Source: a virus (Duplodnaviria > Heunggongvirae > Uroviricota > Caudoviricetes). From it: a stretch of 38,874 nucleotides of DNA. The notes under the pieces are model-generated. The model saw only the letters and a list, made by a program, of their open reading frames with translations. It had not been told where the DNA came from and searched no databases. Within the stretch, counting starts at the first letter, position 1, and each line of letters starts with the position of its first letter. Below are positions 1-38,874 of this stretch, piece after piece. Both the position numbers and the translations under genes were made by a program. The DNA lies in IMG/VR virus record IMGVR_UViG_643692022_000007; one strand, 5' to 3'.

Positions 1-1950
1 ATGAAATCTGTGAAATATAGACCTGATATTGACGGTTTGCGCACATTGGCCGTGCTGATGGTTATCTTGTACCATATTGGTGTACAAAAAATAAGCGGCG
101 GTTTTATAGGTGTTGATGTTTTTTTTGTTATTTCTGGATATCTCATCACTGGAATCATATATCCTAAATTACAAGACGGGACCTTTAGCTATGAAGACTT
201 TTATCTGCGAAGGATAAAAAGAATTTACCCAACTCTACTATTAGTAGTTGCAGTGACATTCATTGCATCATATTTCTTCATGATGCAAACAGATTTTAAA
301 GAATTCATAAATAGTGCTCTTGCATCGTTGCTTTCATTAAGCAATTTCTTTTTCATGTTGAACACTGGTGGTTACTTTGACCAGTCTACAGACAATCTCC
401 CGCTTTTACACACATGGTCATTATCTGTTGAAGAACAGTTTTACATTCTTTGGCCGATAATATTAACCATAGCATTTAAATTTAAGAAGGGAACAGTTAT
501 ATTCATAGTTTCCCTTTTGTTATCCATTGGGTATTCTCAATATCTAACATTCACTAACCCTTCATTTTCTTACTACATGATACCATCTAGAGCTTTCGAG
601 TTGTTAATTGGTGGTATGTGCTCAATTTATCTAAAAAATACATCCCCTACAATCAAGATCAGATCTTTACTTGCATCGTTAGGTGCAACAATTATTATTG
701 CCTCATCATTAATACTGTCAAAGAATTCAAACTTCCCTGGATTGAATGCGCTACCAGTATGTCTTGGAACTGCAATGATAATAATTGCTGGTAATGGCAA
801 TATTTATCCATCAGTTAACAAAATCCTAAGTCTTAAGCCGATTGTTTACATAGGAAAAATATCCTATGCTGCTTACTTATGGCATTGGCCATTAATTGCT
901 TTTTATAATTATAGAGGCATTCCTTTAACACCGTTAAATCAATTAATCATTATCATTATCACACTATTTTTATCAAGCGTAACATTTCATTTCATCGAAA
1001 ATAAGACCAGATATCTGAATTTTTCATTTCAAAAAACAGTCCTGCTATTTTTCGTTTTACCTGTCATTGCGTTTATAGGAATCACCATTACTTCATATAA
1101 AACAGATGGGTTCGCTTACCGATTCAAAGGTTACATCGATGAACTGAGTGATGAAAATGATCCTAGTAAAATAAGAAGCAATTGCCATACAAACTATTAT
1201 AAAAACAATTGGGATATCAAAAGAATAATCCCAGAGTGTAATATTGGTGACACATCAAGACCTGTTGATGGATATCTATGGGGAGATTCATTTGGAAATG
1301 CAAGCGCAGGGTTCTTTGACTCTTATGGGAAGGCTAACGGGCTTAACTTTCAAGAAAGAACAATAAGCTGGACCCCACCTATACCCGCAACCTCCTTTGG
1401 TCTCCCTAACTTTAAAAATGAATATAAAACCAGCACAGCAAACTTTACTTCTTGGATATTCAATGAATCTCTAAGATATAAGTACGTTGTATTATCTGCA
1501 GACTGGAGGCAATATGACAAATGTTCTCGTGATGAAATCACTGGTATACCTCATGAATGTGCTCTGTTTGATTCTAATGGTAACAACATCACCAGAGACT
1601 ATAGAAATAGAGTTGAATCCATGATTAAAGAATACATCAATCACGGCGTGAATGTAATAATCTTTAACTCTGTTAATGGCATTGATTTTAATAAAATAAA
1701 ATCAGGGAAAATAAGTGGAAAAGACATTTCCACAAAAGAATACATGAAAAAAGAGGTTGTAGGGAGTGATGAATTTATTCATTATCTTGTTAAAAAATAC
1801 CCACAAATTACTTATATTGATCCTAATAATATTCTCTGCAAAAATGGTTTATGCACAGGTCAGATTAATGGCAAAATAATTTATAGAGACGGTGGCCATT
1901 TAAACTGGTCTGGTTCAAAGGAACTTGGAAAACTTTACGTTAAAGAGTAA
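1..1950 (+). CDS. Membrane O-acyltransferase (acyltransferase-3 family with C-terminal SGNH-like extension); likely O-antigen acetyltransferase, lysogenic-conversion moron
   Basis: 649-aa ORF starting at base 1. N-terminus MKSVKYRPDIDGLRTLAVLMVILYHIG plus many hydrophobic helices, typical of OafA/Oac-type enzymes. Very AT-rich; lies distal to and convergent with the tailspike gene. Confidence 0.75.
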   Translation: MKSVKYRPDIDGLRTLAVLMVILYHIGVQKISGGFIGVDVFFVISGYLITGIIYPKLQDGTFSYEDFYLRRIKRIYPTLLLVVAVTFIASYFFMMQTDFKEFINSALASLLSLSNFFFMLNTGGYFDQSTDNLPLLHTWSLSVEEQFYILWPIILTIAFKFKKGTVIFIVSLLLSIGYSQYLTFTNPSFSYYMIPSRAFELLIGGMCSIYLKNTSPTIKIRSLLASLGATIIIASSLILSKNSNFPGLNALPVCLGTAMIIIAGNGNIYPSVNKILSLKPIVYIGKISYAAYLWHWPLIAFYNYRGIPLTPLNQLIIIIITLFLSSVTFHFIENKTRYLNFSFQKTVLLFFVLPVIAFIGITITSYKTDGFAYRFKGYIDELSDENDPSKIRSNCHTNYYKNNWDIKRIIPECNIGDTSRPVDGYLWGDSFGNASAGFFDSYGKANGLNFQERTISWTPPIPATSFGLPNFKNEYKTSTANFTSWIFNESLRYKYVVLSADWRQYDKCSRDEITGIPHECALFDSNGNNITRDYRNRVESMIKEYINHGVNVIIFNSVNGIDFNKIKSGKISGKDISTKEYMKKEVVGSDEFIHYLVKKYPQITYIDPNNILCKNGLCTGQINGKIIYRDGGHLNWSGSKELGKLYVKE

Positions 1951-1957
1951 TCATAGA

Positions 1958-1982
1958 AAAGGCGCCGTTAAACGGCGCCTTA
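1958..1982. terminator. Bidirectional rho-independent terminator between the convergent acyltransferase and tailspike genes
   Basis: Perfect hairpin AGGCGCCGTT-taa-ACGGCGCCT flanked by AAAA on one side and TTATTT on the other, between stops at 1950 and 1989. Confidence 0.8.
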
Positions 1983-1988
1983 TTTATA

Positions 1989-4427
1989 TCAAACATTAAG
2001 AGTTTGAATTATATCAGTATTACCTTTATTGTCGACTGGATAGTTACATGATAAAGTTGAATTTATAGTCAAGTTTTCACCAAACCAAAATTTATTTGAT
2101 GTCGATACTGATGAGGACCCAACCCCATCAATTTTTAAACACAACAGAGCATTTATGAAATTATTCCTAACACATCTAATTGTCTTATAGTGAGACAACC
2201 ACGATTGTTCCCCATCGTCTCTAAATAATGTAGCAACACTCTGAGAGATAAATGATTGTGAGGTAATTGTGTTGCAAGTTAACTCCATAATACTATTGGG
2301 TGAACCAAGTGATATACCTGATGGTAAACTAGCAATAACATTACCACCCCTTAGTATATTTCTATTTACTCGAAGTATCTTTGGAGTATAACCGCTTGCG
2401 CTTAAATCAAGAAAAAATGATGAGACAGTACCTAACTGATTACCTGATATTTCTATAACGCAATCAGAAGAACATTTAACATTGAATCTATTATATGTAC
2501 CAGTGAAATTGTTATTTGTTAATGATACTTTTTGATACCCACCTCCAGAGTTACTCCACATAGCTCCAAAAAATGGCGTAGATGGCAAAGATGATGACCA
2601 TCTAAAGTCATTTCCATCAATAAATAGCTCCTTACTATAACTACCAAAACTTAAAGAGCAATTTCTTATTTCATTATCATGAATGAATACACGCTCAAAA
2701 TTACTAACATGTAAGTTGGCGGTTCCTGATGTTAGTAACCTACCCATAATATTATTAGTAAGACGCAGGACTGAATTTGAAATTTCATCTTGATCTACGC
2801 CAATTATCATTCCAGTGCTTGTGATATTAATAATATTGTTATCTATCTTCCAGTCTGAGTTTGTAATATGCGTATACAAAGTTAAAAATGACGGCGCGGA
2901 AAAATAATTGTCCGATATGGATACATTATAAGAATTCATAATGTAATCATTATTTCCAGATATTCCTAAAAGAAGGATTCTATCCTTTGAACGGACGGTA
3001 TTACCTGTAATTTCTATACTATGAGCCCATCCTGTGTCAAACCACTCAGTCCCCCTGTTGGTGTATACCATCATCCAATAGCCACTAGTTGTAGCAGTAT
3101 TTCCAGATACTGTTATTTGCCCCCATGACTGTATAGCATATTCAGATCCAACCATACCATGCCCCGTATCGAATGCCATGCATCCATCAATACAATCAAA
3201 CGTATTGCCGGTAACATCATATCTGTTAAACCCAAATCGACCTTTAACTGCACCATTTCCACGAGTATTTATTCTATTTCTGAAAGTATTGCCGGTTACT
3301 GTAATATCACCAATTAATATACCATTTCCTTGATTGGCAAATGCTTGACCAGCACAGTACACAGCATGGTCATACCATCCAAGAAATGAGTTTCCAGAAA
3401 CACGCAAATTCCGCGCATTCCCTGCTATACAACTGCCAGGAGCATCTTTAAAAACCATATCAAAAACGACCAGTCCTGACGTTTTTTTGTCATGGTTATA
3501 ATATGTCTCACCAGCAACTGGAATATTACCATCAGGACCATGTATATAAGGAGACGTACCACCTGGTTCGATATCACCATAATAAGTTTGGTCTGGAATT
3601 CCTGTAGTGCTGCTGGTTCCCGATGCCGCAACTTCAATTGAACGTGCATTACCATCAATTTGTAACCCATGCACCGACTGAGCACCTACAGCACCACTCA
3701 GGAATCGGAATAATTTACGGGTATCTCTTGCCGGATCAATCTCGGTCGTAGAACCTTCAACAAAGTATGTGCGATACCGGCGAGTAATAGTTGCTGAACC
3801 ATCGCCCCATACTGAACGAACATATGACCATACATTAACAGCCGAATCAAAACAGTATATTCCAGTTGGGAAGTATACGGAGCATTTAAGATTATGCGCC
3901 TCATCCATGACCATCTGAACTTTAGGCTGATGGTTTATTGAAAGGTCACCAGATGCCAAAGCAGCCAGCTCTGCTTCGTTCATATATTTTGTAGCCAGAA
4001 TACTTGGTGTCTTCTCTACATATTCATCAAGTGTTCCATATCGGGTGTTTACAAGAGAACCATTGCCATTAGCTAATTCAAGGCGCAACTGGTCAGGATC
4101 GTATTTCAGTACATTAGGATAATAGAACTGCTGTGCCCCGTACGCATCATAAACAGCCATAGAATGGCCTTGCACAGTTACGAACTTGGCAATCTGTCCG
4201 TTATATACCGGATATCCAGCGGCGTTAATGATGATTGGTTGCGATACAGGAACGTGAGAACCGTCTTCGTTTTCCACATAAACCTGAATCTGGTTTTCAG
4301 GATTTACAGGGTCAGTGTCAATTTTACCGATATAAATTTTGCCATTGGCAACCGCTTTAAAAGAACGCGCCATAGTGAAAAGTTGCGAAGGCATCGATAC
4401 GATCACATTGGCTGTAATGTCTGTCAT
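1989..4427 (-). CDS. gp9: Tailspike protein: P22-type N-terminal head-binding domain fused to a divergent beta-helix receptor-binding domain
   Basis: 812 aa. The first ~110 residues ([58 protein letters not shown]...) closely match the remembered P22 tailspike N-terminus. The rest has repeated xTGNTx motifs typical of a right-handed beta-helix. The 3' two-thirds of the gene is AT-rich. Confidence 0.9.
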
Positions 4428-4484
4428 TTAATTTGCTCCAGATACAATGAATCGCCGCAGCGTGGCCACGGTGAAATTTGGGCA

Positions 4485-4509
4485 TAAAAAAACCCAGCCG
4501 AAGCTGGGT
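4485..4509 (-). terminator. Rho-independent terminator between gp16 and the tailspike gene
   Basis: Minus-strand hairpin ACCCAGC-TTCG-GCTGGGT followed by a T-run (plus strand shows the A-run then acccagccgaagctgggt), in the 132-bp gap. Confidence 0.65.
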
Positions 4510-4559
4510 CGTTGCGTTGGTTATCTGTCAGTAGTTATGTACTTAGTTAATTATTTATT

Positions 4560-6404
4560 CTATTGTTCTGCTGTAATTTGGCTTGAAAGTATAGGGCGTA
4601 TCGCATTTGCAGCATTATTTAGCGCTCTTTCATAGGCTGGTGTTCCTGCTTTGGTGTTAGCCAAACGAAGAAGCATATTCCGTGCGGCTTTGGACTCATA
4701 CAAGCGCATCATTGCACCGAAACCAGCCTCAAGCCCCATTGATACGCCAAGAGTTGCCGTTGCGCCAATCGTTCTTATCCGGTTGGCTTGCGATTGCCCT
4801 GTCTGAGTTACTACATTTGCGGTGTCTGACCTTGCTGTTTGCTGTAGAACTTCATGAAGAGCATCAAGCTCTTTCATGTGCTTTCCAGAAAAAATAGTGT
4901 TGTAAATTTCACCACCTGACTGAGATTTCAGCTTATTAACTTCCGTGATGAACTTGGCTGGAGAGTCACCGGCCTTTTCCGCTATTTTGCTGACGTAAGC
5001 TGCACGCATAGCATCTTTCCCCTTATCATCCAATGCGATCCAGATTCGTTTCACGTCAGATGGTTTTCTGCTTAATACAACGGTATTTATAAGTTCAGGG
5101 CTGGCTTCACTACTTGCCTTATTGAGCTTGTTAGCAATGTTTTTATTAAGCACCTTATTATAAACGTTTGCATAATCGGAATTTGCTTTAAGGTATTTTG
5201 CTGCGTCTGAAGCACCGAGGTTTTTAGCAACTGCGTTACGAAGGTCTTTTGACATTGCATTCTCTACCATATTGGTAGCTGCTTTTGCCTGGTTGGGGAA
5301 GACCATAGCATCTCCCTGAACATTAGATCTAAATGCCGTTCTGTGCTGACGCAGGAGATCAAACGTAACATCCAAATCAGTTGCAGGGTTTGCTAATTCT
5401 TCACGTAGGTTACGCAAGGATGTAAGCAGGCTTTGATTGGCAGACGTCCCAAGCCGTTCCTGTCTTGCGATCGCTGTATTCAGAGCATTCATAGTGTTTG
5501 TGGTATCAACTGCGGCATTACCCATTTTATTGGTGACGTCATTGATAACTGCGCCAGCAGAATCCTTCCGTCCCCTTAACGTGGTGGTCAGAGATTTCAC
5601 CACATCATCAGGGTTGTACTCACCAAAACGGTCAAAATAATTACTTACCAACTTACTACGCGTTGCATATTGCTCTGCCCTTTTACTGCCAGTTCCAAGA
5701 ATGGCCCCCTCAGCATCCTGAGTAAGACCACGAGTGAATGCATTTTTCGGTGGGATGACATCAGATGTCATAGGTGTCACGCCCATCGATTCTGATGTGG
5801 CAATTTTTTTCGCCACTTCTGGCGCAATATCGCCTTTTATAGCCGTTATTCCACGCCCTATTCCCTTTGCTGCTGCGGAAAGAACACCCTGAGCGGCAAG
5901 GTTAACTCCGGCATTTCTTGCTGCATTTTGTGCGAAATCGCCTTTCTGATTTGCGGCCTCTGCCAGTGATCCAATAGCCATGCTTCCTGCCGTTCCAACT
6001 CCTGGAACTAAATACCCACCAATTGTTTCACCTGCTTGTGCGTAGGGGTCTGTCGGTCTGTCTACTGGACGATAAACATCATCCAATACTTTTGGCCCAC
6101 CAAGCCCCTGACTGATTGCATTAATCAGACTTGCGCCACCCTGCAATACGTCAAATGGTATGTTTACCAGACCACGACCAGCCTGTTCTGCAATTTGCCC
6201 TGCACTTTGACCACCAGTGAGCCAATCGCCAGCTTGTTGCATCAATGATGGTTCTTCCTGTGTTGGTGCATTATTGGCCTGATTAACTGTTTGTTGCTGA
6301 ACAGCCTGACCAGCAAAATACTCATCAATGGCGGTGCCAATATCTTCGGTGCTCGTACCATCAGGAAAGGTAAATGTCTTACCGTTTGCAGTTACTTTCA
6401 TCAT
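4560..6404 (-). CDS. gp16: Ejection (internal virion) protein, P22 gp16-like
   Basis: 614 aa (P22 gp16 is about 609), last gene of the gp14-gp7-gp20-gp16 block; Gly/Ala-rich N-terminal region. Confidence 0.8.
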
Positions 6405-7813
6405 TCCACCGTAAATTGAATGCCTGATTTTGAGGTATATGATCCAACCTGATTCCGTGGTTCTCCTGAAGGTGTCGAATCTTGTGCTGGCGCTGCGTCA
6501 GTATTCATTGACATATACCGCTTAACGGCACTCCCCAATGATTCACCTTTTTTAACATCCAACCCCAATATCTGACCGCCATTACGCGATTGTCCAGGGT
6601 TGCCATTCGCGCTCATCCACTCGGCTTTAAACTCATTAAACTGCGCGTTTCGTCGCTCAAGGTTTGCCATTGCATCAAGCCATCTTGCGACCGTCTCAGG
6701 GTTATCCATGTCAGTTGGCGCACCCTGTCGAACGATCTCAACGTCTTTATCCGTTGCTGGGCCGGGAGGTAGGAATTTAAGAACCTGACTGTTAACAAGG
6801 GCATTTTGGCGAATGCGCAAATCACGCAATGTTGTATCGCTTCCGGTAAGTTTTGCGAACATGTTCTGTGCGTTACCGAACAAACCTGTCGTTGGTTTTT
6901 CTGCTCTGAACTGTTGAGCAAGCGCACTCATAGAATTGGCTGAGTTTGATGATGCTGTAGCATTGTTTACAGCCGTCTCGATGCCTTTTTCCATGTTTAC
7001 TGACAGCTTAGGTGCTTCGCTAATCAACTGCTGAGCCTTTTCCTGCGCTTGCTGCATCTTAAACCCGAACTCTTGCTGATCCAGAGCCAAGCGCTGTGCT
7101 GCGATATTGTGCCCAGTCATTGCTGACTGATAGGAAAGGTTTTGCCCTCTCGCCTGAAGTGCTTCTCCAGCCTGATTGCTGCGGATTGTCTCTGCCAGCC
7201 TGCCTCGGTCAATCTCACGACCAACCATCTTGTCCTGAACATTGAAGTAATCAATCGGACCAAGAGCAGCCATCCCAAGGTGATCAACAAACTCACCAAA
7301 TCCTGAAGGGTTCTGCTGATACATCTGAGCAACGCTGTTAGGGTCAACACCGACGCGAGTCAGTTCCTTGGCGTTGTTTTGCAGCCATGATTGCATCGCT
7401 TCTGGAGATGATGACGCAAGGCGAGCGCCAGCCGCTAATGTGCCGATAGAACTGCGCTGGTCTTCGTCAGCCCACTTCATGCCTGACTGAATCTTCTCTA
7501 ATTGACCAGGATATTTGGTCATCAGATCTCGCACCTGCTGTCGATCACCTGACTGGATGGCTGCCGCATATTCTTTTTGGAATGCAGCATCCGCTTCCTG
7601 TTGCTTTGCGGCTTTATATGTTTGAGCGACACTACCCAGCCCCTGCAACGCCTGAAGGCCGATGTTATTACGTCCTGAACGCTCCATCTCGTTATTCTGT
7701 CGAATGTATGCAAGCGTGGCGTCTGCATCACTTGCTCTTGGAGCGTTGGAGTTCATGCCGCCTAACCCGGCAAGAAGCGCGCCTGTATTACCAGCCTGTT
7801 GCCATGTAGCCAA
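6401..7813 (-). CDS. gp20: Ejection protein, P22 gp20-like
   Basis: 470 aa (P22 gp20 is about 471); position between the gp7-like and gp16-like genes; 4-nt overlap with gp16. Confidence 0.8.
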
Positions 7814-7825
7814 GAGACACCTCCA

Positions 7826-8479
7826 TTAAAAAAGTGAACCAAGAAGACCGACGCCGGCACCAATTGCTGTACCCCAACCAGGCATGATTGCAGTACCTGC
7901 AGCTGCACCTGCCGCCGCTCCACCCAAGGCGCTCTGAAATCCTGATGGTTTATTCGCATTAGCCGCAGATGCTGCCGCCTGCTGTTGATACAATTGGCTG
8001 ACGTTGTTAGCGTAGTTCTGCCCAGCGTTTGCCTGACCTGTAAGAGCACCAAGGCCAATGTTTGCCAGATTGTTGTAGTTGTTCATCTGACCTGACAGCC
8101 AGTTTTGACCGAGTGTAGGTGCGATTGCAGCTAACTGGTTTCCTGTTGCTGTAGAGCCTAATCCACCAGTTGCCTCTGCTGCTGCCAGACTCTGGTAACG
8201 CGCCTGACCAGCAAGGTCTTTGTACTGCTGGGAGTTGTAATACTGGTTAAGCGCCTGACCTTGCCCCTGAAGAGAGGAAAGATTTTGCAACTGTGATACG
8301 TACTGCTGAGCGAGTGGTGTGAACGGTGCAAGGTTCTGCATGTTCGTTTGCCACATTTCACGCTGCAGTTCGATGCCCTTTTCAGTTGCGCGTGCCTGGG
8401 CTTTTGAACCGCCATCACTGCCACCTTTGCAGTAAACAGTTTTGCTGAGGTGCTTATTGGCAATCTGGAAAATTAACAT
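7826..8479 (-). CDS. gp7: Ejection protein, P22 gp7-like
   Basis: 217 aa, Gln/Ala/Gly-rich with a hydrophobic Gly-rich C-terminus; synteny with P22 gp7. Assigned mainly by position and size. Confidence 0.6.
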   Translation of the reverse strand: MLIFQIANKHLSKTVYCKGGSDGGSKAQARATEKGIELQREMWQTNMQNLAPFTPLAQQYVSQLQNLSSLQGQGQALNQYYNSQQYKDLAGQARYQSLAAAEATGGLGSTATGNQLAAIAPTLGQNWLSGQMNNYNNLANIGLGALTGQANAGQNYANNVSQLYQQQAAASAANANKPSGFQSALGGAAAGAAAGTAIMPGWGTAIGAGVGLLGSLF

Positions 8480-16380: not shown

Positions 16381-17880
16381 TTAAGTTCTCCGTGCGATGG
16401 GCCTGATTGGGGCTGGTATCTTTTTCTCTTTTGGTTTTTTGATGTCGCGCATCATTTTGGCGAAGCGGCGCATCATGTATGCATAGCGAACGGCGGAGAG
16501 AACGTCATCGTTAAGCTTGACGATTTTCCCGTTTTCATCACGGTGATAGAGGCGGAACTCCTCAAAGAATGGCTCACAGGTGTTGAATACTTTGAAGCGA
16601 CCATCGAGCATCATGTCGCGCAATTCAGTGATGCCAGGCTCCACCGCGTTACCGCCATCAGGCCATGTCGCATGCTCCTGCAACATCATAAAACCAGCAT
16701 CTGCATACTGCCCTTTGAGCTGCTCACCGCCGCCCTTCTCGTGCTGATTTCCGTCATGAGGCCATGCTGTTGGCACTTTATGCGCCCATGATTTAACAGC
16801 TCCCCATGCCTGAACGGCTGTTTTTTCTTTCGCCTTCCACACGCGTGAAACGTAGATTGTGTCTGCGTCCTTATCCCACCAAAGCTGAACCTGCGCCTGT
16901 GGGTGATCCCATCCGAAATCCATCCCGCCAATTACGTAGAAGTGATCAGGACACTCGAACGGCTGGCACTTAATCGTCTCTTCCGGTATCTGGAAGATTC
17001 GACCGCTACCCATCGTAGGAATACCGCGAGCACGAGCCTCTCTCTCATGCTCGGGATAGGATGCGATGATTTGCTCTTTCTGCTCGTCGGTGTAGTGCTC
17101 AGCGTCGTAGATGGTCATGTTGACCACTTTCTGCGACTTGCTTGGATTCTTCAGGAACTTGGTAACAACGTCAGACATCCCCATCAGCGGGGTAAACGTC
17201 AGAATTGAGAATTGCCCGTATTTGTTGGTACGGGTAAGACCTTCGCCATAAATGCTGTATGGTGGTTCTTCGTCAAACCACACGCCGTGGATTGTGTCAC
17301 CCTGCCAGCGAGCACGGCCTTGCGAGTATGGCTTGAAGTAGCAGATTGAAATGCCATCTTCAACGCCATCAGCCGTGTGATGCTTAACCAGAAGATGATC
17401 AACAAGGTTCGGAAAGAAAGGAGACTTCTTCCAGCTAATGATGTCTTCTTTCGGTATGGAACCGTAGCCAGGCTCATCATTCTCTTCAATACGACCGCAC
17501 AGGATGCGTTGAGTCGTTTTGGTTACAGTCTCGTTTGTCTCGCCACCAATCCAGAAGACAACAGGCTCATAAAAACGCTTACCTTTCCACTCACCGCCAT
17601 ATTTACCATCAGCAGGATAGCCTTTTGTGCCCGGATAACGCCCTGTAAGGTGAAACGCTACTTCAGCAGCACCAGTAAATGACTTACCAAGCTGGTTACC
17701 AGCCATAAAACAGCGCTCTGGATAGTCATGCCCGGCGTCGATGAACTCACGCTGTTTGCTGTATGGCGTAAATTCATATAGCAGGTGTGTGTTCCGGTAG
17801 TTCTCTTCTTCTTCGAGTAGCTCGAGCAATTCGATTTGCTCTTCGTCGCTCAGGTTATCAAGAATCGCGTCCAGTTCCAC
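16381..17880 (-). CDS. gp2: Terminase large subunit, P22 gp2 family
   Basis: 499 aa, the same length as P22 gp2; directly downstream of terS and overlapping it. Confidence 0.9.
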
Positions 17881-19145: not shown

Positions 19146-19664
19146 TCACTTTGGCAGTCCGGGGATCGATATTTGCGCCTGCTGCTCAAGCCTTTCGATT
19201 CTTGCTATGAGTTGCGGTTTTTTGATCCTGCCCCAGCGGTTCAGCAAGCGTCCTGACATACTGGCAACATCCTTTTCCTTCATGAACTCCAGCATTAACT
19301 CGTTGTGCTCTCTTTGGTATGAGTGAGCCATCTCCATCAGCCTGTCACGCATCCAATTAAATGCTTTGATAAACGCCTCTTTGATGGCGGCAGCTTTTTT
19401 GCCGGTAAACGACATGATGATGTACATCGCACCGTCTTTGGAAATTTCATATTCAACATACTGATTACCCTTGTGTTCATAGGTAACCCGCGAAAAGTTG
19501 CTGGTTAGAAATTCATCCGAACAGTCTAGCTTTTCGATTTTCTGAATGATGTGGTGATGCTGCTTGTCGAAGTAAGCTGCTACCTTGCGGGAGGTTGTGA
19601 TCACGCGATCACCAGAAACAACCACCATGTCCCGGAAATCGAGATTAGCCAATTGATGATTCAT
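19146..19664 (-). CDS. rha: Rha-family phage regulatory protein
   Basis: From the internal ATG the product MNHQLANLDFRDMVVVSGDRVITTSRKVAAYFDKQHHHIIQKIEKL... is about 172 aa and looks like Rha. The longer track ORF (to 19907) is probably upstream read-through. Confidence 0.65.
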   Translation of the reverse strand: MNHQLANLDFRDMVVVSGDRVITTSRKVAAYFDKQHHHIIQKIEKLDCSDEFLTSNFSRVTYEHKGNQYVEYEISKDGAMYIIMSFTGKKAAAIKEAFIKAFNWMRDRLMEMAHSYQREHNELMLEFMKEKDVASMSGRLLNRWGRIKKPQLIARIERLEQQAQISIPGLPK

Positions 19665-19804
19665 AGCGTCTTTACCTTTTAGAAAGTGAGCCTGTCTCAC
19701 AGAAAAGCCGCCCGAGAGAGGTCGCCACCTATAACGGCATTTCTCAGGCTCGCTTACTGAAAGGCTCTCGTTAATATGCGCGTGAGATGCGCTGTGAAAT
19801 TCAG

Positions 19805-19832
19805 ATATAAAAAAGCCCCGCGAATGCGAGGC
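19805..19832 (-). terminator. Rho-independent terminator downstream of the lysis cassette
   Basis: Minus-strand hairpin GCCTCGC-attc-GCGGGGC (one mismatch) followed by TTTTTTATATCTG. Confidence 0.6.
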
Positions 19833-20006
19833 TAAATCCTGGTGTTTGTGATGACTGGCTCTTATCTCAACGCAGCCCCTTACCGCGCGCCATATGCTTA
19901 ACTTCAAGCATCAGCAATGAGATGTTTAATCTGGATTCACTCCAGAAGTGATCACCACCCTGTCTACAGAGCCAGATGTGAAGGATGATGAGTAAAATTA
20001 TCGCTA

Positions 20007-30518: not shown

Positions 30519-30896
30519 ATGAGCGATAAAGAGTTTAAAGTACTTAATTTTGATGATTTTGCTCATTATTTGAGCACATTGAACGGCGAACAAATTTGTC
30601 CAATGTGTATGGAAGAGTCATGGACGCTTTTCACCCCAAACAAGCTTCCTCCAGAAGACGAGGATAGGTATGTAATAAGTTCTATCCCAGGATCACTTAT
30701 TTCAAGTAAAAAACCTGAAAAATCAAATCTCTTCTTCAGAAGTTACAACAACGATGTCCTCCTGATGCAATGCAGAAATTGTGGATACATGGCATTTTTT
30801 AATTATAAAAAAGTCCAAGAAAACCTTGAATCAGGGGATTATATAAAAAAAGAAGATATAGATATGGTGGATGAAAATGACAAATCAGAAGACTGA
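30519..30896 (+). CDS. Hypothetical small zinc-ribbon-like protein (immunity-region moron, gene A)
   Basis: 125 aa; two CxxC pairs (CPMC at about residue 27, CRNC at about 85); acidic C-terminal tail; strongly AT-rich; first gene downstream of cI on the same strand. Confidence 0.6.
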   Translation: MSDKEFKVLNFDDFAHYLSTLNGEQICPMCMEESWTLFTPNKLPPEDEDRYVISSIPGSLISSKKPEKSNLFFRSYNNDVLLMQCRNCGYMAFFNYKKVQENLESGDYIKKEDIDMVDENDKSED

Positions 30897-31356
30897 TTTC
30901 TTCCGTCCAATGGAGTATGATAATAACTATGAGCAATTTGGTGTTATAGAAGCACACAGGAATGGTCGTTCTACTCCGTCATATCAGCCAGGCACCATTG
31001 GTAAGGATATCCCGGTTATTATTGCGCATAAGTTAAGCGATCAACCAGCAGGGGGTGAGCCACAGATGAGCGTAAAATCACTGTCACGTTGGGAGTTTTG
31101 GCTAGGGATTTTCACTGCCATTATTGGGATATTTTCCATTGTTGTAGGAGCAACGTGGACAATTTCTAATAATATCAATGATAAGATTAATGCATCAAGA
31201 CAAGAGCTAACCGGGAACATCCAATCCAGTCGAGCAGAAATCACGGCAAGAATTGACAGGCTCGAAGATAAGATGGAGTCTAATTTCAAAGAAACATCAT
31301 CGAATCTGTTCAAAATACAGGCAATTCTAGAAGCAAAATCCGACAAAGAAAAATAA
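30871..31356 (+). CDS. Hypothetical single-pass membrane protein with C-terminal coiled coil (immunity-region moron, gene B)
   Basis: 161 aa; MKM N-terminus; one TM helix (WEFWLGIFTAIIGIFSIVVGATW); heptad-like C-terminus; overlaps gene A by 26 nt; followed by a terminator. Confidence 0.6.
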   Translation: MKMTNQKTDFFRPMEYDNNYEQFGVIEAHRNGRSTPSYQPGTIGKDIPVIIAHKLSDQPAGGEPQMSVKSLSRWEFWLGIFTAIIGIFSIVVGATWTISNNINDKINASRQELTGNIQSSRAEITARIDRLEDKMESNFKETSSNLFKIQAILEAKSDKEK

Positions 31357-32709: not shown

Positions 32710-32798
32710 ATGTCGCTCGTAACTAAACAGGAGCCGACTTGTTCTGATTATTGGAAATCTTCTTTGCCCTCCAGTGTGGGGGCTTTTTTGATGGAGGA

Positions 32799-33770
32799 TA
32801 TATGAGTGAAGTAACAGATTTAGTTGTTATTGAAAAAGCAAATGCAATGATTGTATTTCAGTCTGCTGACCAGATTGAAGAAATTCTCCAAAAGGTTGAA
32901 CGTGAAGTTATGTCCTTTGTGCCTGATATCACAACGGCAAAGGGCAGAAAGGAGATCGCTTCTCTGGCGTATAAAGTTGCGCAGACGAAAACATATCTCG
33001 ATGGTCTTGGCAAAGACCTTGTTGCTGAACTGAAGGAAATTCCAAAGCTAATTGATGCCAACCGCAAGACAGTGCGCGATCGCCTTGATGAACTGAAAGC
33101 CAAGGCACGCCAGCCTCTTACTGATTATGAGGAAGAACAGGCGCGAATTAAAGCCGAAGAAGAAGCTAAGGCAGCAGCTGAAGCTCTCGCAAAGCAAATT
33201 GAGTCTGACCATGAAATAGCGATTTTGATGGATCGCGAATTTGACCGCCAAAGAGAAGAGGCAAGACTCAAAGCGGAGCAGGAAAAGCGAGAGCATGAAG
33301 AACGCTTAAAAAGAGAAGCTGAAGAGAAAGCCAGAGCAGAAGCCGAAGCAAAGGCAAAAGCCGAAATTGAAGCAGCAGCAAGACGAGAAGCAGAGGCTAA
33401 GGCCGCAGCGGAACGTGCAGAGCGTGAACGCATTGAAGCCGAGCAACGAGCACAGCGCGAAGCAAAAGAGGCAGCAGAACGAGCTGAAAGAGAAAAGCAT
33501 GCGGCAATTGAAGCAGAACGCCGAAAAGCACAGGAGGAGGCTGAACGAATCCGGCTCGAGGCTGAAGCAAAAGAGCAAGCCAGAATAGCAGAAGAAAAAA
33601 GAATCAAGGACGAAGAAGAGCGTAGAGCAAAGGATAAAGCTCACCGGAAAGAAGTAAATAACAAAATACTTGCTGACCTTATCAAGGTTGGCGCATCAGA
33701 AGATGTTGCTAAAAATATCATAACAGCCATCGTAAAAGGCGAAGTATTCGCAACAAAAATAACCTACTAA
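32799..33770 (+). CDS. Hypothetical highly charged coiled-coil protein with Ala/Glu/Lys/Arg repeats
   Basis: From MSEVTDLVVIEKANAMIVFQ..., about 323 aa; central ~200 aa low-complexity (AEAEAKAKAEIEAAARREAEAKAAAERAERERIEAE...); globular ends. Confidence 0.6.
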   Translation, partial: YMSEVTDLVVIEKANAMIVFQSADQIEEILQKVEREVMSFVPDITTAKGRKEIASLAYKVAQTKTYLDGLGKDLVAELKEIPKLIDANRKTVRDRLDELKAKARQPLTDYEEEQARIKAEEEAKAAAEALAKQIESDHEIAILMDREFDRQREEARLKAEQEKREHEERLKREAEEKARAEAEAKAKAEIEAAARREAEAKAAAERAERERIEAEQRAQREAKEAAERAEREKHAAIEAERRKAQEEAERIRLEAEAKEQARIAEEKRIKDEEERRAKDKAHRKEVNNKILADLIKVGASEDVAKNIITAIVKGEVFATKITY

Positions 33771-38682: not shown

Positions 38683-38874
38683 ATGACCGATACCAGCCTG
38701 ATTCCTGAGAAAGAAGTGATGAACAAGCTCGGTGTTTCATCACGTCAGACAATCTGGAACTATACCAAACGGCACGGATTTCCGAAGCCAGTCAGAACCC
38801 ACCCCAAATCATACCTTCGTGAAGCTGTTGAAGGGTGGATTCTTAACGGTGGCGTTAATCAGAAATGCTCCTGA
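38683..38874 (+). CDS. Excisionase-like small DNA-binding protein (Xis/AlpA-type)
   Basis: 63 aa; MTDTSLIPEKEVMNKLGVSSRQTIWNYTKRHGFPKPV... is typical of small winged-helix excisionases; last gene of the early-left operon, where xis precedes int. Confidence 0.5.
   Translation: MTDTSLIPEKEVMNKLGVSSRQTIWNYTKRHGFPKPVRTHPKSYLREAVEGWILNGGVNQKCS

Follow-up and report, generated by a model that had tools for sequence, protein, structure and literature searches.

The window (the whole stretch of DNA analysed, 38,874 nucleotides) comes from a P22-like prophage of Escherichia fergusonii ATCC 35469. At the locus described here the gene order is int, an AT3-SGNH acyltransferase gene, a convergent tailspike gene and gp16, without immI. 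The features are as follows, in window coordinates:

1-1950, plus strand: AT3-SGNH membrane acyltransferase of 649 amino acids, with an AT3 transmembrane domain (residues ~1-370) followed by a linker (SGNH extension) and a periplasmic SGNH domain (residues ~371-649)
1951-1988, no strand assigned: 38-bp gap between the convergent genes, with a GC-rich hairpin at 1959-1981, a candidate bidirectional intrinsic terminator
1989-4085, minus strand: receptor-binding domain of the tailspike (residues ~115-812), a right-handed parallel beta-helix of a rare sequence family
4086-4427, minus strand: head-binding (particle-anchoring) domain of the tailspike, P22/Sf6 type (residues 1-114; PF09008, match to Sf6 gp14)
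4428-4559, minus strand: 132-bp intergenic region between gp16 and the tailspike, with a terminator-like hairpin only
4560-6404, minus strand: P22 gp16-type DNA-ejection protein (PF26808 on an identical product)

Layout and state of the locus

The tailspike ORF as a whole occupies 1989-4427 on the minus strand and encodes 812 amino acids. Both this ORF and that of the acyltransferase are intact, and identical copies occur in at least 22 contigs each (24 for the tailspike and 22 for the acyltransferase), so that a reading of the locus as a dead remnant was rejected. The acyltransferase gene lies at the prophage end, beside int or att: it adjoins the host junction in E. fergusonii, and in three comparative loci (L010, L014 and L001) it lies beside int at argW. 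Conversion genes usually sit at prophage ends. The gene is on the strand opposite to the late operon, from which the hairpin would insulate it. A single weak promoter-like site, 82-110 nt upstream, is not above the frequency found in shuffled sequence, and phase variation of the gtr type (Dam/OxyR) was set aside because just two GATC sites lie upstream.

The first-pass annotation had proposed that the convergent genes share a bidirectional terminator. A hairpin with a 10-bp stem (AAGGCGCCGTT-AAA-CGGCGCCTT, 1959-1981) does lie in the 38-bp gap and folds on both strands, with energies of -20.2 kcal/mol on the plus strand and -19.0 kcal/mol on the minus strand; none of 200 shuffled sequences was as stable on either strand. 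An imperfect U-rich tail follows it on both strands, but the terminator scan calls it on the plus strand only, and function in both directions is no stronger than plausible from the sequence. The hairpin is also kept in the cassette as it occurs in Citrobacter, described below.

The absence of the immI genes (ant, mnt, arc and sieA) between gp16 and the tailspike, likewise remarked on at first pass, was confirmed: the 132 bp between these genes contain only the terminator-like hairpin at 4510-4491 on the minus strand. This gap is homologous to the sequence immediately upstream of the CUS-3 and HK620 tailspikes, and the immI-less order of gp16 and tailspike is not unusual, because it is common to HK620, Sf6 and BTP1. 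A Rha/antirepressor-like gene is located elsewhere in the window, at 19146-19907.

The acyltransferase and the tailspike

The gene convergent with the tailspike was described as AT-rich and as encoding a 649-residue membrane acyltransferase, and its composition (GC 0.337, GC3 0.298) and domains agree with this. The product matches Acyl_transf_3 (PF01757; residues 9-328, E = 1.4e-36) and a fused SGNH domain (PF19040; residues 395-647, E = 1e-30) in Pfam, and phrog_6705, 'O-antigen acetylase', at 2e-160. Its AF2 model (pLDDT 90) contains about 11 transmembrane helices and an alpha/beta domain, and the top fold match is the SGNH domain of OafB (6SE1; TM 0.63 on target). Salmonella OafA and OafB share its two-domain architecture, with the essential residues at equal or near-equal numbering. 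The R/K-X10-H motif of TMH1, the GG-F/Y-XGV-D loop and RXXR, which are essential in OafA, OafB and Oac, are all found in the enzyme. It has R14, H25, D39, RxxR, Ser430, Asp630 and His633 at the OafA-essential positions, mutation of which abolishes activity (PMC7448272). In an alignment of 30 homologues R14, H25, GGFIGVD39, R71-I-K-R74, G428-D429-S430 and H633 are invariant, and Asp630 is the consensus. As far as its sequence tells, the enzyme appears intact and of the right family for glycan acylation.

In contrast to these shared features, the enzyme belongs to a lineage distant from OafA and OafB. A phmmer search with the single sequence against solved structures found no relative, and only a profile of homologues reaches OafB 6SE1 (E = 1e-4), aligned through GDS (block I) and DxxH (block V). 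Identity is 78-94% to four close clusters and at most 40% beyond them; with GtrC of the Salmonella phage BTP1 it is 41.5%, over residues 1-303 (the AT3 domain) only. Members of the OafB/family-2 GtrC group are 77-99% identical among themselves (PMC4413052), and orthology with that group (rhamnose 2/3-O-acetyltransferases) was therefore rejected. Judged from these alignments, the acyltransferase resembles OafB in its working without being its orthologue. Since the similarity to BTP1 GtrC is restricted to the AT3 domain, substrate and position are not transferable by homology.

The tailspike was expected to keep a P22-type N-terminal head-binding domain and to change to a different sequence from about residue 110, and both points were borne out. 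Residues 1-113 match Head_binding (PF09008, E = 1.1e-66); the closest solved head-binding domain is that of Sf6 gp14 (7sg7; E = 1e-64, residues 1-119), and this region has 86-94% nucleotide identity to CUS-3, HK620, Sf6 and others. Solved tailspikes of P22, Sf6 and related phages give no sequence match beyond residue ~119, and nucleotide similarity to deposited phages ends at window position ~4084-4090, corresponding to tailspike residue ~113-115. The remainder had been called an AT-rich beta-helix. GC3 is indeed low throughout the receptor-binding domain (0.22-0.29) compared with 0.43 in the head-binding domain, which marks a compositional break at the domain junction (gp16 and gp20 have 0.36-0.46), but total GC is not uniformly low, with 0.434 in residues 115-339, 0.375 in residues 340-539 and 0.330 in residues 540-812.

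AlphaFold predicts that residues 115-812 form a long right-handed beta-helix (pLDDT 85.9, pTM 0.85). In the comparison with HK620, Sf6 and P22 called for at first pass, the HK620 tailspike, an endo-N-acetylglucosaminidase, is among the best structural matches, and the sequence is unrelated to those of Sf6 and P22. Identity to the HK620 beta-helix is ~10-13%, so far as the models go a generic fold resemblance only. On the same footing, the modelled tailspike shares the construction of known O-antigen tailspikes: after a P22 head-binding domain comes a confidently predicted beta-helix. By sequence, the receptor-binding domain belongs to none of the characterised families (P22, Sf6, HK620, CUS-3, Det7 and CBA120), and a PHROG search gave no family for it. 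Invariant acidic residues are present (e.g. D214 and D239-H240 in receptor-binding-domain numbering), but the conserved acidic residues could not be mapped to a groove, and neither a catalytic family nor catalytic residues could be assigned.

Full-length relatives of the domain are rare: a profile search of 1.84 billion representatives, whose matches fell mostly on the N-terminal anchor columns of the alignment, gave 12 matches at E <= 1e-30 and about five clusters with full-length relatives. Among deposited isolates only 'tail spike 3' of the Kuttervirus Vi01 and KEP4 (Ackermannviridae) have a full-length relative, with 52% identity over 99% of the length. Unlike the phage studied here, these are virulent myoviruses with another N-terminal anchor, in which a conversion gene was not noted. 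The literature searched yielded neither the receptor of the Vi01-type tailspike relative nor a usable O-antigen structure or gene cluster of E. fergusonii.

Proposed function and related systems

We interpret the locus as a cassette for lysogenic conversion and receptor specificity, located at one end of the P22-like E. fergusonii prophage, a reading drawn from sequence to which we assign a probability of roughly 0.7. Six trimeric tailspikes on the virion would attach to the tail via the conserved head-binding domain, and the beta-helix domain would bind, and probably cleave, a particular polysaccharide of the host surface, with O-antigen as the likeliest candidate. The convergent gene would supply the lysogen with an inner-membrane AT3-SGNH enzyme, whose AT3 domain would carry acetyl from cytoplasmic acetyl-CoA across the membrane and whose periplasmic SGNH domain would pass it to a sugar of the tailspike's own target polysaccharide. 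The modified receptor would no longer be bound or cut by the tailspike, so that the same phage and its relatives would be barred from superinfection and the serotype of the lysogen changed; the lysogen's O-antigen would also be spared from tailspikes freed by spontaneously induced sister cells. Here we infer the substrate, acetyl as the transferred group, expression in the lysogen and the block of the tailspike.

The closest parallel is BTP1 (Lederbergvirus), a temperate P22-like phage with the same order of int, AT3-SGNH gene (~640 amino acids), convergent tailspike and gp16, a hairpin in a gap of ~40 bp, no immI between gp16 and the tailspike, and an acyltransferase with the same domain pair and motifs. 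It differs, besides the low identity of the acyltransferase, in having a gtrA remnant upstream, which the window does not have, in its endorhamnosidase (as in P22), to which the receptor-binding domain of the window is unrelated in sequence, and in its host, Salmonella as opposed to Escherichia or Citrobacter. The GtrC/OafB acetyltransferase of BTP1 is both required and sufficient to protect against BTP1 infection, and in a mutant the prophage tailspike shortens the O-antigen (PMC4413052). In the P22-like Shigella phage Sf6, also without immI, an O-antigen acetyltransferase gene lies between the tailspike and int, and acetylation by Oac blocks Sf6's own tailspike (PMC9558356). In contrast to the enzyme described here, Sf6 Oac is AT3-only, without a periplasmic SGNH domain, and the receptor-binding domains of the two phages have no sequence similarity past residue ~119. 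By analogy, the match in layout to BTP1 supports a receptor-masking role. The first-pass annotation had seen in this locus a receptor-specificity and serotype-conversion module, and the AT3-SGNH residues, the phrog_6705 match, the BTP1 gene order and the joint transfer described below all speak for it; the implied novelty was overstated, because the arrangement is of a known type. The locus is a further example of the established module type that recognises a surface sugar and then masks it.

The same logic of recognition and masking would hold, unchanged, if the pair targeted a polysaccharide other than O-antigen, such as capsule (K antigen), colanic acid, enterobacterial common antigen or peptidoglycan. 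Peptidoglycan, capsule and other glycans are among the substrates of AT3-SGNH enzymes (PMC9558356), capsule-specific domains occur on P22-type anchors (e.g. the CUS-3 endosialidase), and in fold comparison the beta-helix is roughly as similar to capsule depolymerases as to O-antigen tailspikes. We nevertheless consider such a target unlikely, since the nearest phage family is annotated as O-antigen acetylase, the best structural match of the periplasmic domain is an O-antigen enzyme, OafB, and sister members of the tailspike family adjoin gtrABC operons. These operons are O-antigen glucosylation systems.

Exchange of the two genes between phages

The acyltransferase gene, the hairpin and the receptor-binding domain form one contiguous low-GC3 block of ~4.07 kb. 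GC3 is 0.26-0.30 in both genes, compared with 0.43-0.46 in the head-binding domain and gp20 and 0.36 in gp16, which is a backbone neighbour outside the mobile cassette. Positions -330 to 4442 of the window are 99.2% identical to L010 and L014, argW prophages with another P22-like backbone; gp16 of the argW phage with the 99%-identical cassette has no nucleotide similarity to gp16 of the window. Positions -9 to 4061 are 91% identical in two Citrobacter prophages (L018 and L024) whose tail protein is of siphovirus type and whose tailspike anchor is of TSP1 type, and the edges of this shared block are the acyltransferase start and tailspike residue ~122. The pair has stayed together in at least two separate transfers, which differ in their left-hand junctions: one, into another P22-like backbone, included the head-binding domain, and the other, into a siphovirus-type phage, did not. 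As the alignments read, the two genes move jointly between unrelated phage backbones. A scan of genome contigs with the receptor-binding-domain alignment contributed one locus, and exact-protein look-ups and IMG/VR supplied most of the loci compared.

In other members of this tailspike family the slot is occupied by different glycan-modifying genes: AT3-only acyltransferases (with a receptor-binding domain of 70% identity), gtrABC (56%) and a GT4 glycosyltransferase (42%). The pairing is frequent and not obligatory, since a Salmonella P22-like prophage with a receptor-binding domain of 70% identity has no modifier; a virulent T7-like phage with the receptor-binding domain also has no modifier gene. 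Many different genes, including an IS element, are found behind the tailspike, and the slot is sometimes empty. Such variety would be expected if the adjacency were incidental, the slot being a general moron insertion site and the acyltransferase aiding the host (for example in evading immunity or in resisting unrelated phages) with no specific relation to the tailspike; moreover, co-transfer of the pair could reflect mere physical linkage, if tight. We regard this explanation as quite improbable, however, because the pair was kept through those separate transfers with their different junctions, because a second, unrelated pair (the 56%-type domain and gtrABC) was likewise transferred co-linearly across anchor types, and because the functional link has been shown directly in BTP1 and Sf6.

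Dependence on O-acetyl groups is known for some receptor-binding proteins of phages. That the enzyme here creates the receptor which the tailspike requires, or that the tailspike is a non-enzymatic binder, as the unassignable catalytic residues and the adhesin PfbA among the top structural matches might suggest, seems very improbable, since a prophage that made its own lysogens adsorb its progeny would waste virions, all characterised phage O-antigen acyltransferases adjacent to tailspikes act as a block, and virulent phages without the acyltransferase also carry the receptor-binding domain.

Within the preferred reading, a conversion cassette that masks the tailspike's own receptor, we tentatively suggest, at somewhat less than even odds, that the acyltransferase and the receptor-binding domain may be inherited as one unit, a 'key plus lock-changer' cassette that recombines whole between podoviruses, siphovirus-type phages and possibly other temperate phages, always breaking right after the anchor domain. 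The same rule may hold family-wide, each receptor-binding subtype having a cognate modifier (AT3-SGNH, AT3-only, gtrABC, GT4 and perhaps a secreted esterase). In that case, the gene that follows a prophage tailspike could serve as a systematic predictor of the receptor chemistry that the tailspike cannot tolerate.

With this locus, the known phage modules of this type gain a new tailspike of uncharacterised specificity and an enzyme distantly resembling OafA/OafB. It provides a clean natural case in which a receptor-binding domain and a presumed masking enzyme are exchanged as one block of ~4 kb, across phages of differing morphology and between Escherichia and Citrobacter. The locus is of limited practical consequence: O-typing of E. 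fergusonii, E. coli and Citrobacter from genotype would overlook the predicted modification, and the tailspike domain is a candidate typing or depolymerisation reagent once its glycan is established. In contrast to the intact copies, a decayed copy of the pair is present in E. coli GDSC2227PM, in which the acyltransferase gene is split and the tailspike has an internal stop.

Gene layout and the tailspike junction

The window is a P22-like prophage, with ends set at the start codon of the first gene and the stop codon of the last. Its genes are as follows:

1-1950, + strand: acyltransferase (649 aa)
1989-4427, - strand: tailspike (812 aa)
4560-6404, - strand: gp16
6401-7813, - strand: gp20
7826-8479, - strand: gp7
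beyond gp7, - strand: remaining P22 late operon, including portal, scaffold and coat
far end of the window, + strand: early-left genes, among them repressor, N and Erf
38683-38874, + strand: excisionase-like ORF, also of the early-left group, at the window's end

Exact-protein look-ups assign the window to Escherichia fergusonii ATCC 35469 (CU928158.2), and found unchanged copies of the tailspike in at least 24 contigs and of the acyltransferase in at least 22, from genomes and sequencing runs. The first-pass annotation described the two genes as convergent, with a shared bidirectional terminator; the 38-bp gap between them contains a candidate for such a terminator, a hairpin with a 10-bp GC-rich stem (approximately -20 kcal/mol on both strands), a stability reached by none of 200 shuffles. 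The same annotation stated that the P22 immI region is missing between gp16 and the tailspike. This is correct, because the 132-bp gap there holds only a terminator-like hairpin and no immI genes. Although immI is missing, an antirepressor-like gene is present elsewhere: a Rha-like/antirepressor-family regulator lies at 19146-19907 (- strand), in the stretch that separates the lysis genes from the terminase (phrog_518, 8e-80). Two small ORFs without assigned function are located between the repressor and N (30519-31356, + strand), the usual place for exclusion or moron genes in P22-like phages, and the early-left operon includes a 339-aa ORF, also without assigned function (32751-33770, + strand; phrog_1376).

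The tailspike was said to keep a P22-type head-binding domain and to differ from about residue 110 onwards. The domain was recovered at residues 1-113 (E 1e-66). The solved Sf6 and P22 tailspikes align with residues 1-119 and nowhere beyond, megablast against 50 697 phage records gave similarity confined to 4084-4543, and the boundary of the mobile cassette described below falls at 4061 within the gene. These three limits place the junction at residues 114-122. The claim that the C-terminal part is AT-rich holds in one respect: GC3 drops sharply at the junction, from 0.43 in the head-binding domain to 0.22-0.29 across the receptor-binding part (gp16, 0.36; gp20, 0.46), but total GC declines only gradually along the protein, from 0.43 to 0.33. 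The proposed beta-helix was borne out by modelling of residues 115-812 from a 32-sequence alignment, which predicted a long right-handed beta-helix (pLDDT 85.9, pTM 0.85); fold searches with this model returned generic matches only, as expected of such a fold.

The receptor-binding domain belongs to a rare sequence family, with 36 clusters among 5.8 billion proteins and around five full-length clusters at 50% identity (1.84 billion representatives). It has no PHROG match, and the only deposited phages with a full-length relative are Vi01 and KEP4 (Ackermannviridae; 52% identity). Members are fused to three virion anchors (P22 head-binding, TSP1/Gp66-N and T7-tail), which is the usual modularity of tailspikes. 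Compared with the tailspike of L025, an E. fergusonii-type variant with 77% overall identity, nucleotide identity is 85% across 2637-4434, and only around 68%, or unalignable, across 2002-2636 (the last ~200 codons). This suggests a second recombination point within the domain, near residue ~597.

The membrane acyltransferase

The 649-aa product of the first gene had been called a membrane acyltransferase, and its domains agree: Acyl_transf_3 (E 1e-36) precedes an SGNH domain of the kind found in AT3 fusions (E 1e-30). Its GC3 is 0.30. Upstream of the gene, at ~100 nt, there is only one weak promoter-like site, a number no higher than chance would give. Mutagenesis of Salmonella OafA identified R14, H25, D39, R69/R72 and the SGNH triad S412/D587/H590 as essential (Pearson et al., PMC7448272). 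The counterparts in the window enzyme are R14, H25, S32-GGFIGVD39, R71-I-K-R74, G428-D-S430 and D630-G-G-H633. All of these essential-residue equivalents except D630 are invariant in a 30-homologue alignment with identities down to 33%; D630 is found in the window enzyme and in the alignment consensus. When the 30 homologues were turned into a profile, it hit 6SE1, the periplasmic domain of OafB, at E 1e-4, with the GDS and DxxH blocks aligned. 6SE1 is also the top PDB fold match for the AlphaFold model (pLDDT 90), in which around eleven membrane helices precede an alpha/beta domain. The human transmembrane acetyltransferase HGSNAT (8vlu, CoA-bound) ranks lower and is the sole membrane acetyltransferase among the matches listed.

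Relatives of the enzyme comprise four close clusters at 78-94% identity and then fall to 40% or below, and BTP1 GtrC/OafB shows 41.5% identity over the AT3 domain only, so that the enzyme represents a separate lineage. The residue, profile and fold matches, taken with this separate lineage, therefore predict a protein that works in an OafA/OafB-like manner, with a substrate that homology does not reveal. A pair directed at a glycan other than O-antigen would be compatible with such an enzyme; the PHROGs class is 'O-antigen acetylase' (2e-160), and we regard this alternative as improbable.

Movement of the pair and history of the locus

The segment from -330 to 4442 is 99.2% identical to loci in which the pair adjoins an argW-type integrase. 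The carrier there is a different P22-like backbone (gp16 of 665 aa, gp20 of 431-462 aa, gp7 of 230 aa), and its gp16 has no nucleotide similarity to that of the window. A shorter segment, -9 to 4061, is 91% identical to prophages of Citrobacter werkmanii, whose tailspike carries an anchor of TSP1 type; the adjoining tail protein there is 68% identical to its counterpart in siphoviruses, phage C1, Skate and vB_EcoS_ASO78B among them. The common segment runs from the acyltransferase start codon to tailspike residue ~122. These alignments indicate that tailspike domain and acyltransferase move as one block. In a prophage remnant with an 84%-identical acyltransferase, a family tailspike still adjoins it as its final 49 codons. 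A second, independent co-linear block with 72% nucleotide identity is shared by L041 (5368-10054) and L037 (8565-13251), the carriers being a Salmonella P22-like prophage and a siphovirus-type prophage; it contains a receptor-binding domain (56% identical to that of the window), gtrC, the greater part of gtrB and a 152-aa ORF, and has its junction at the same tailspike residue, ~122. Incidental adjacency of the two genes is a rival account, which we consider improbable, to about the same degree as a different glycan target.

On the acyltransferase side of the E. fergusonii prophage there is no integrase, and the host gene sbmC is reached after ~940 bp. The first 330 bp upstream of the window (14428-14757 of L002, the E. 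fergusonii ATCC 35469 locus) are 99% identical to the argW-type loci L010 and L014, and consist of the last 61 bp of the argW-type int plus the 270-bp int-acyltransferase spacer. These sequences are most simply read as a recombination scar: a P22-like phage integrating at sbcB would have taken over its entire tailspike-acyltransferase end from a relative of argW type. In other genomes the excisionase-like ORF, which is extremely widespread (~35 000 indexed blocks of the sequence collection), runs into the 3' end of an integrase gene (392 aa) that is convergent with it and lies next to sbcB. Probably it does likewise in E. fergusonii, and the window was probably clipped just short of its own integrase.

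The module occurs in only one of 5426 complete E. coli genomes (GDSC2227PM, locus L001), and that copy is decayed: its acyltransferase gene is broken into two parts, a stop codon interrupts the tailspike, and immediately upstream of this damaged tailspike an HNH endonuclease gene (16518-17027) has been inserted. Phage Kapi1 has an HNH endonuclease annotated at the equivalent position.

Proposed O-antigen recognition and modification

The arrangement is of an established type, described in general terms in PMC10408124. In Salmonella phage BTP1 the gene order is xis, int, a gtrA remnant, gtrC (AT3-SGNH), convergent tailspike and gp16; as in the window, a hairpin occupies a gap of ~40 bp and immI is absent. 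GtrC-BTP1 is necessary and sufficient for protection from BTP1, its expression is not phase variable, and lysogens without it have O-antigen shortened in a tailspike-dependent manner (Kintz et al., PMC4413052). Oac of Shigella phage Sf6 is an AT3-only counterpart (PMC9558356).

In the favoured mechanism, the virion beta-helix would bind, and probably cleave, the host O-antigen; the prophage AT3-SGNH enzyme would acetylate the same O-antigen in the periplasm; and the acetylated chain would resist the tailspike. Same and similar phages would thereby be excluded, the serotype changed, and the lysogen's own LPS shielded from free tailspikes. We give this mechanism as a whole a probability of roughly 0.7, and the first-pass interpretation of receptor specificity with serotype conversion is the best available. 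The converse, a tailspike that needs the acylated glycan as its receptor, is very unlikely. New here are the receptor-binding domain, which is rare and uncharacterised, its partner enzyme, distantly OafA/OafB-like, and clear evidence that the pair travels as a single cassette between genera and between phages of different morphotype.

Genes behind the tailspike in relatives, by receptor-binding domain identity to the window
77%: unclassifiable 503-aa membrane protein
70%: AT3-only acyltransferases
56%: gtrA-gtrB-gtrC, with or without the 84%-identical acyltransferase
42%: GT4 glycosyltransferase
39%: secreted GDSL esterase

In the more distant relatives this position is thus taken by further genes acting on glycans. 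Exceptions are one Salmonella prophage with a family tailspike and no modifier, one locus with an IS element behind the tailspike, and a virulent T7-like carrier of the domain without a modifier gene, as expected of a phage that does not lysogenise. The 503-aa multi-pass membrane protein (L025, 9124-10635, - strand) is convergent with the 77% variant tailspike and has no match in Pfam, PHROG or NCBIfam; a role in O-antigen modification, as a member of no class so far described, is possible. The 392-aa GDSL/SGNH esterase of C. werkmanii NBRC 105721 (L023/L031, 9137-10315, + strand) follows the 39% tailspike in the same direction, and its N-terminus resembles a signal peptide; the tailspike's partner here could be a deacetylase in place of an acetyltransferase. 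IMG genome 2684622552 carries two P22-like prophages (L025 and L030) with family tailspikes 77% and 42% identical to that of the window, the first being followed by the unclassified membrane protein and the second by a GT4 glycosyltransferase.
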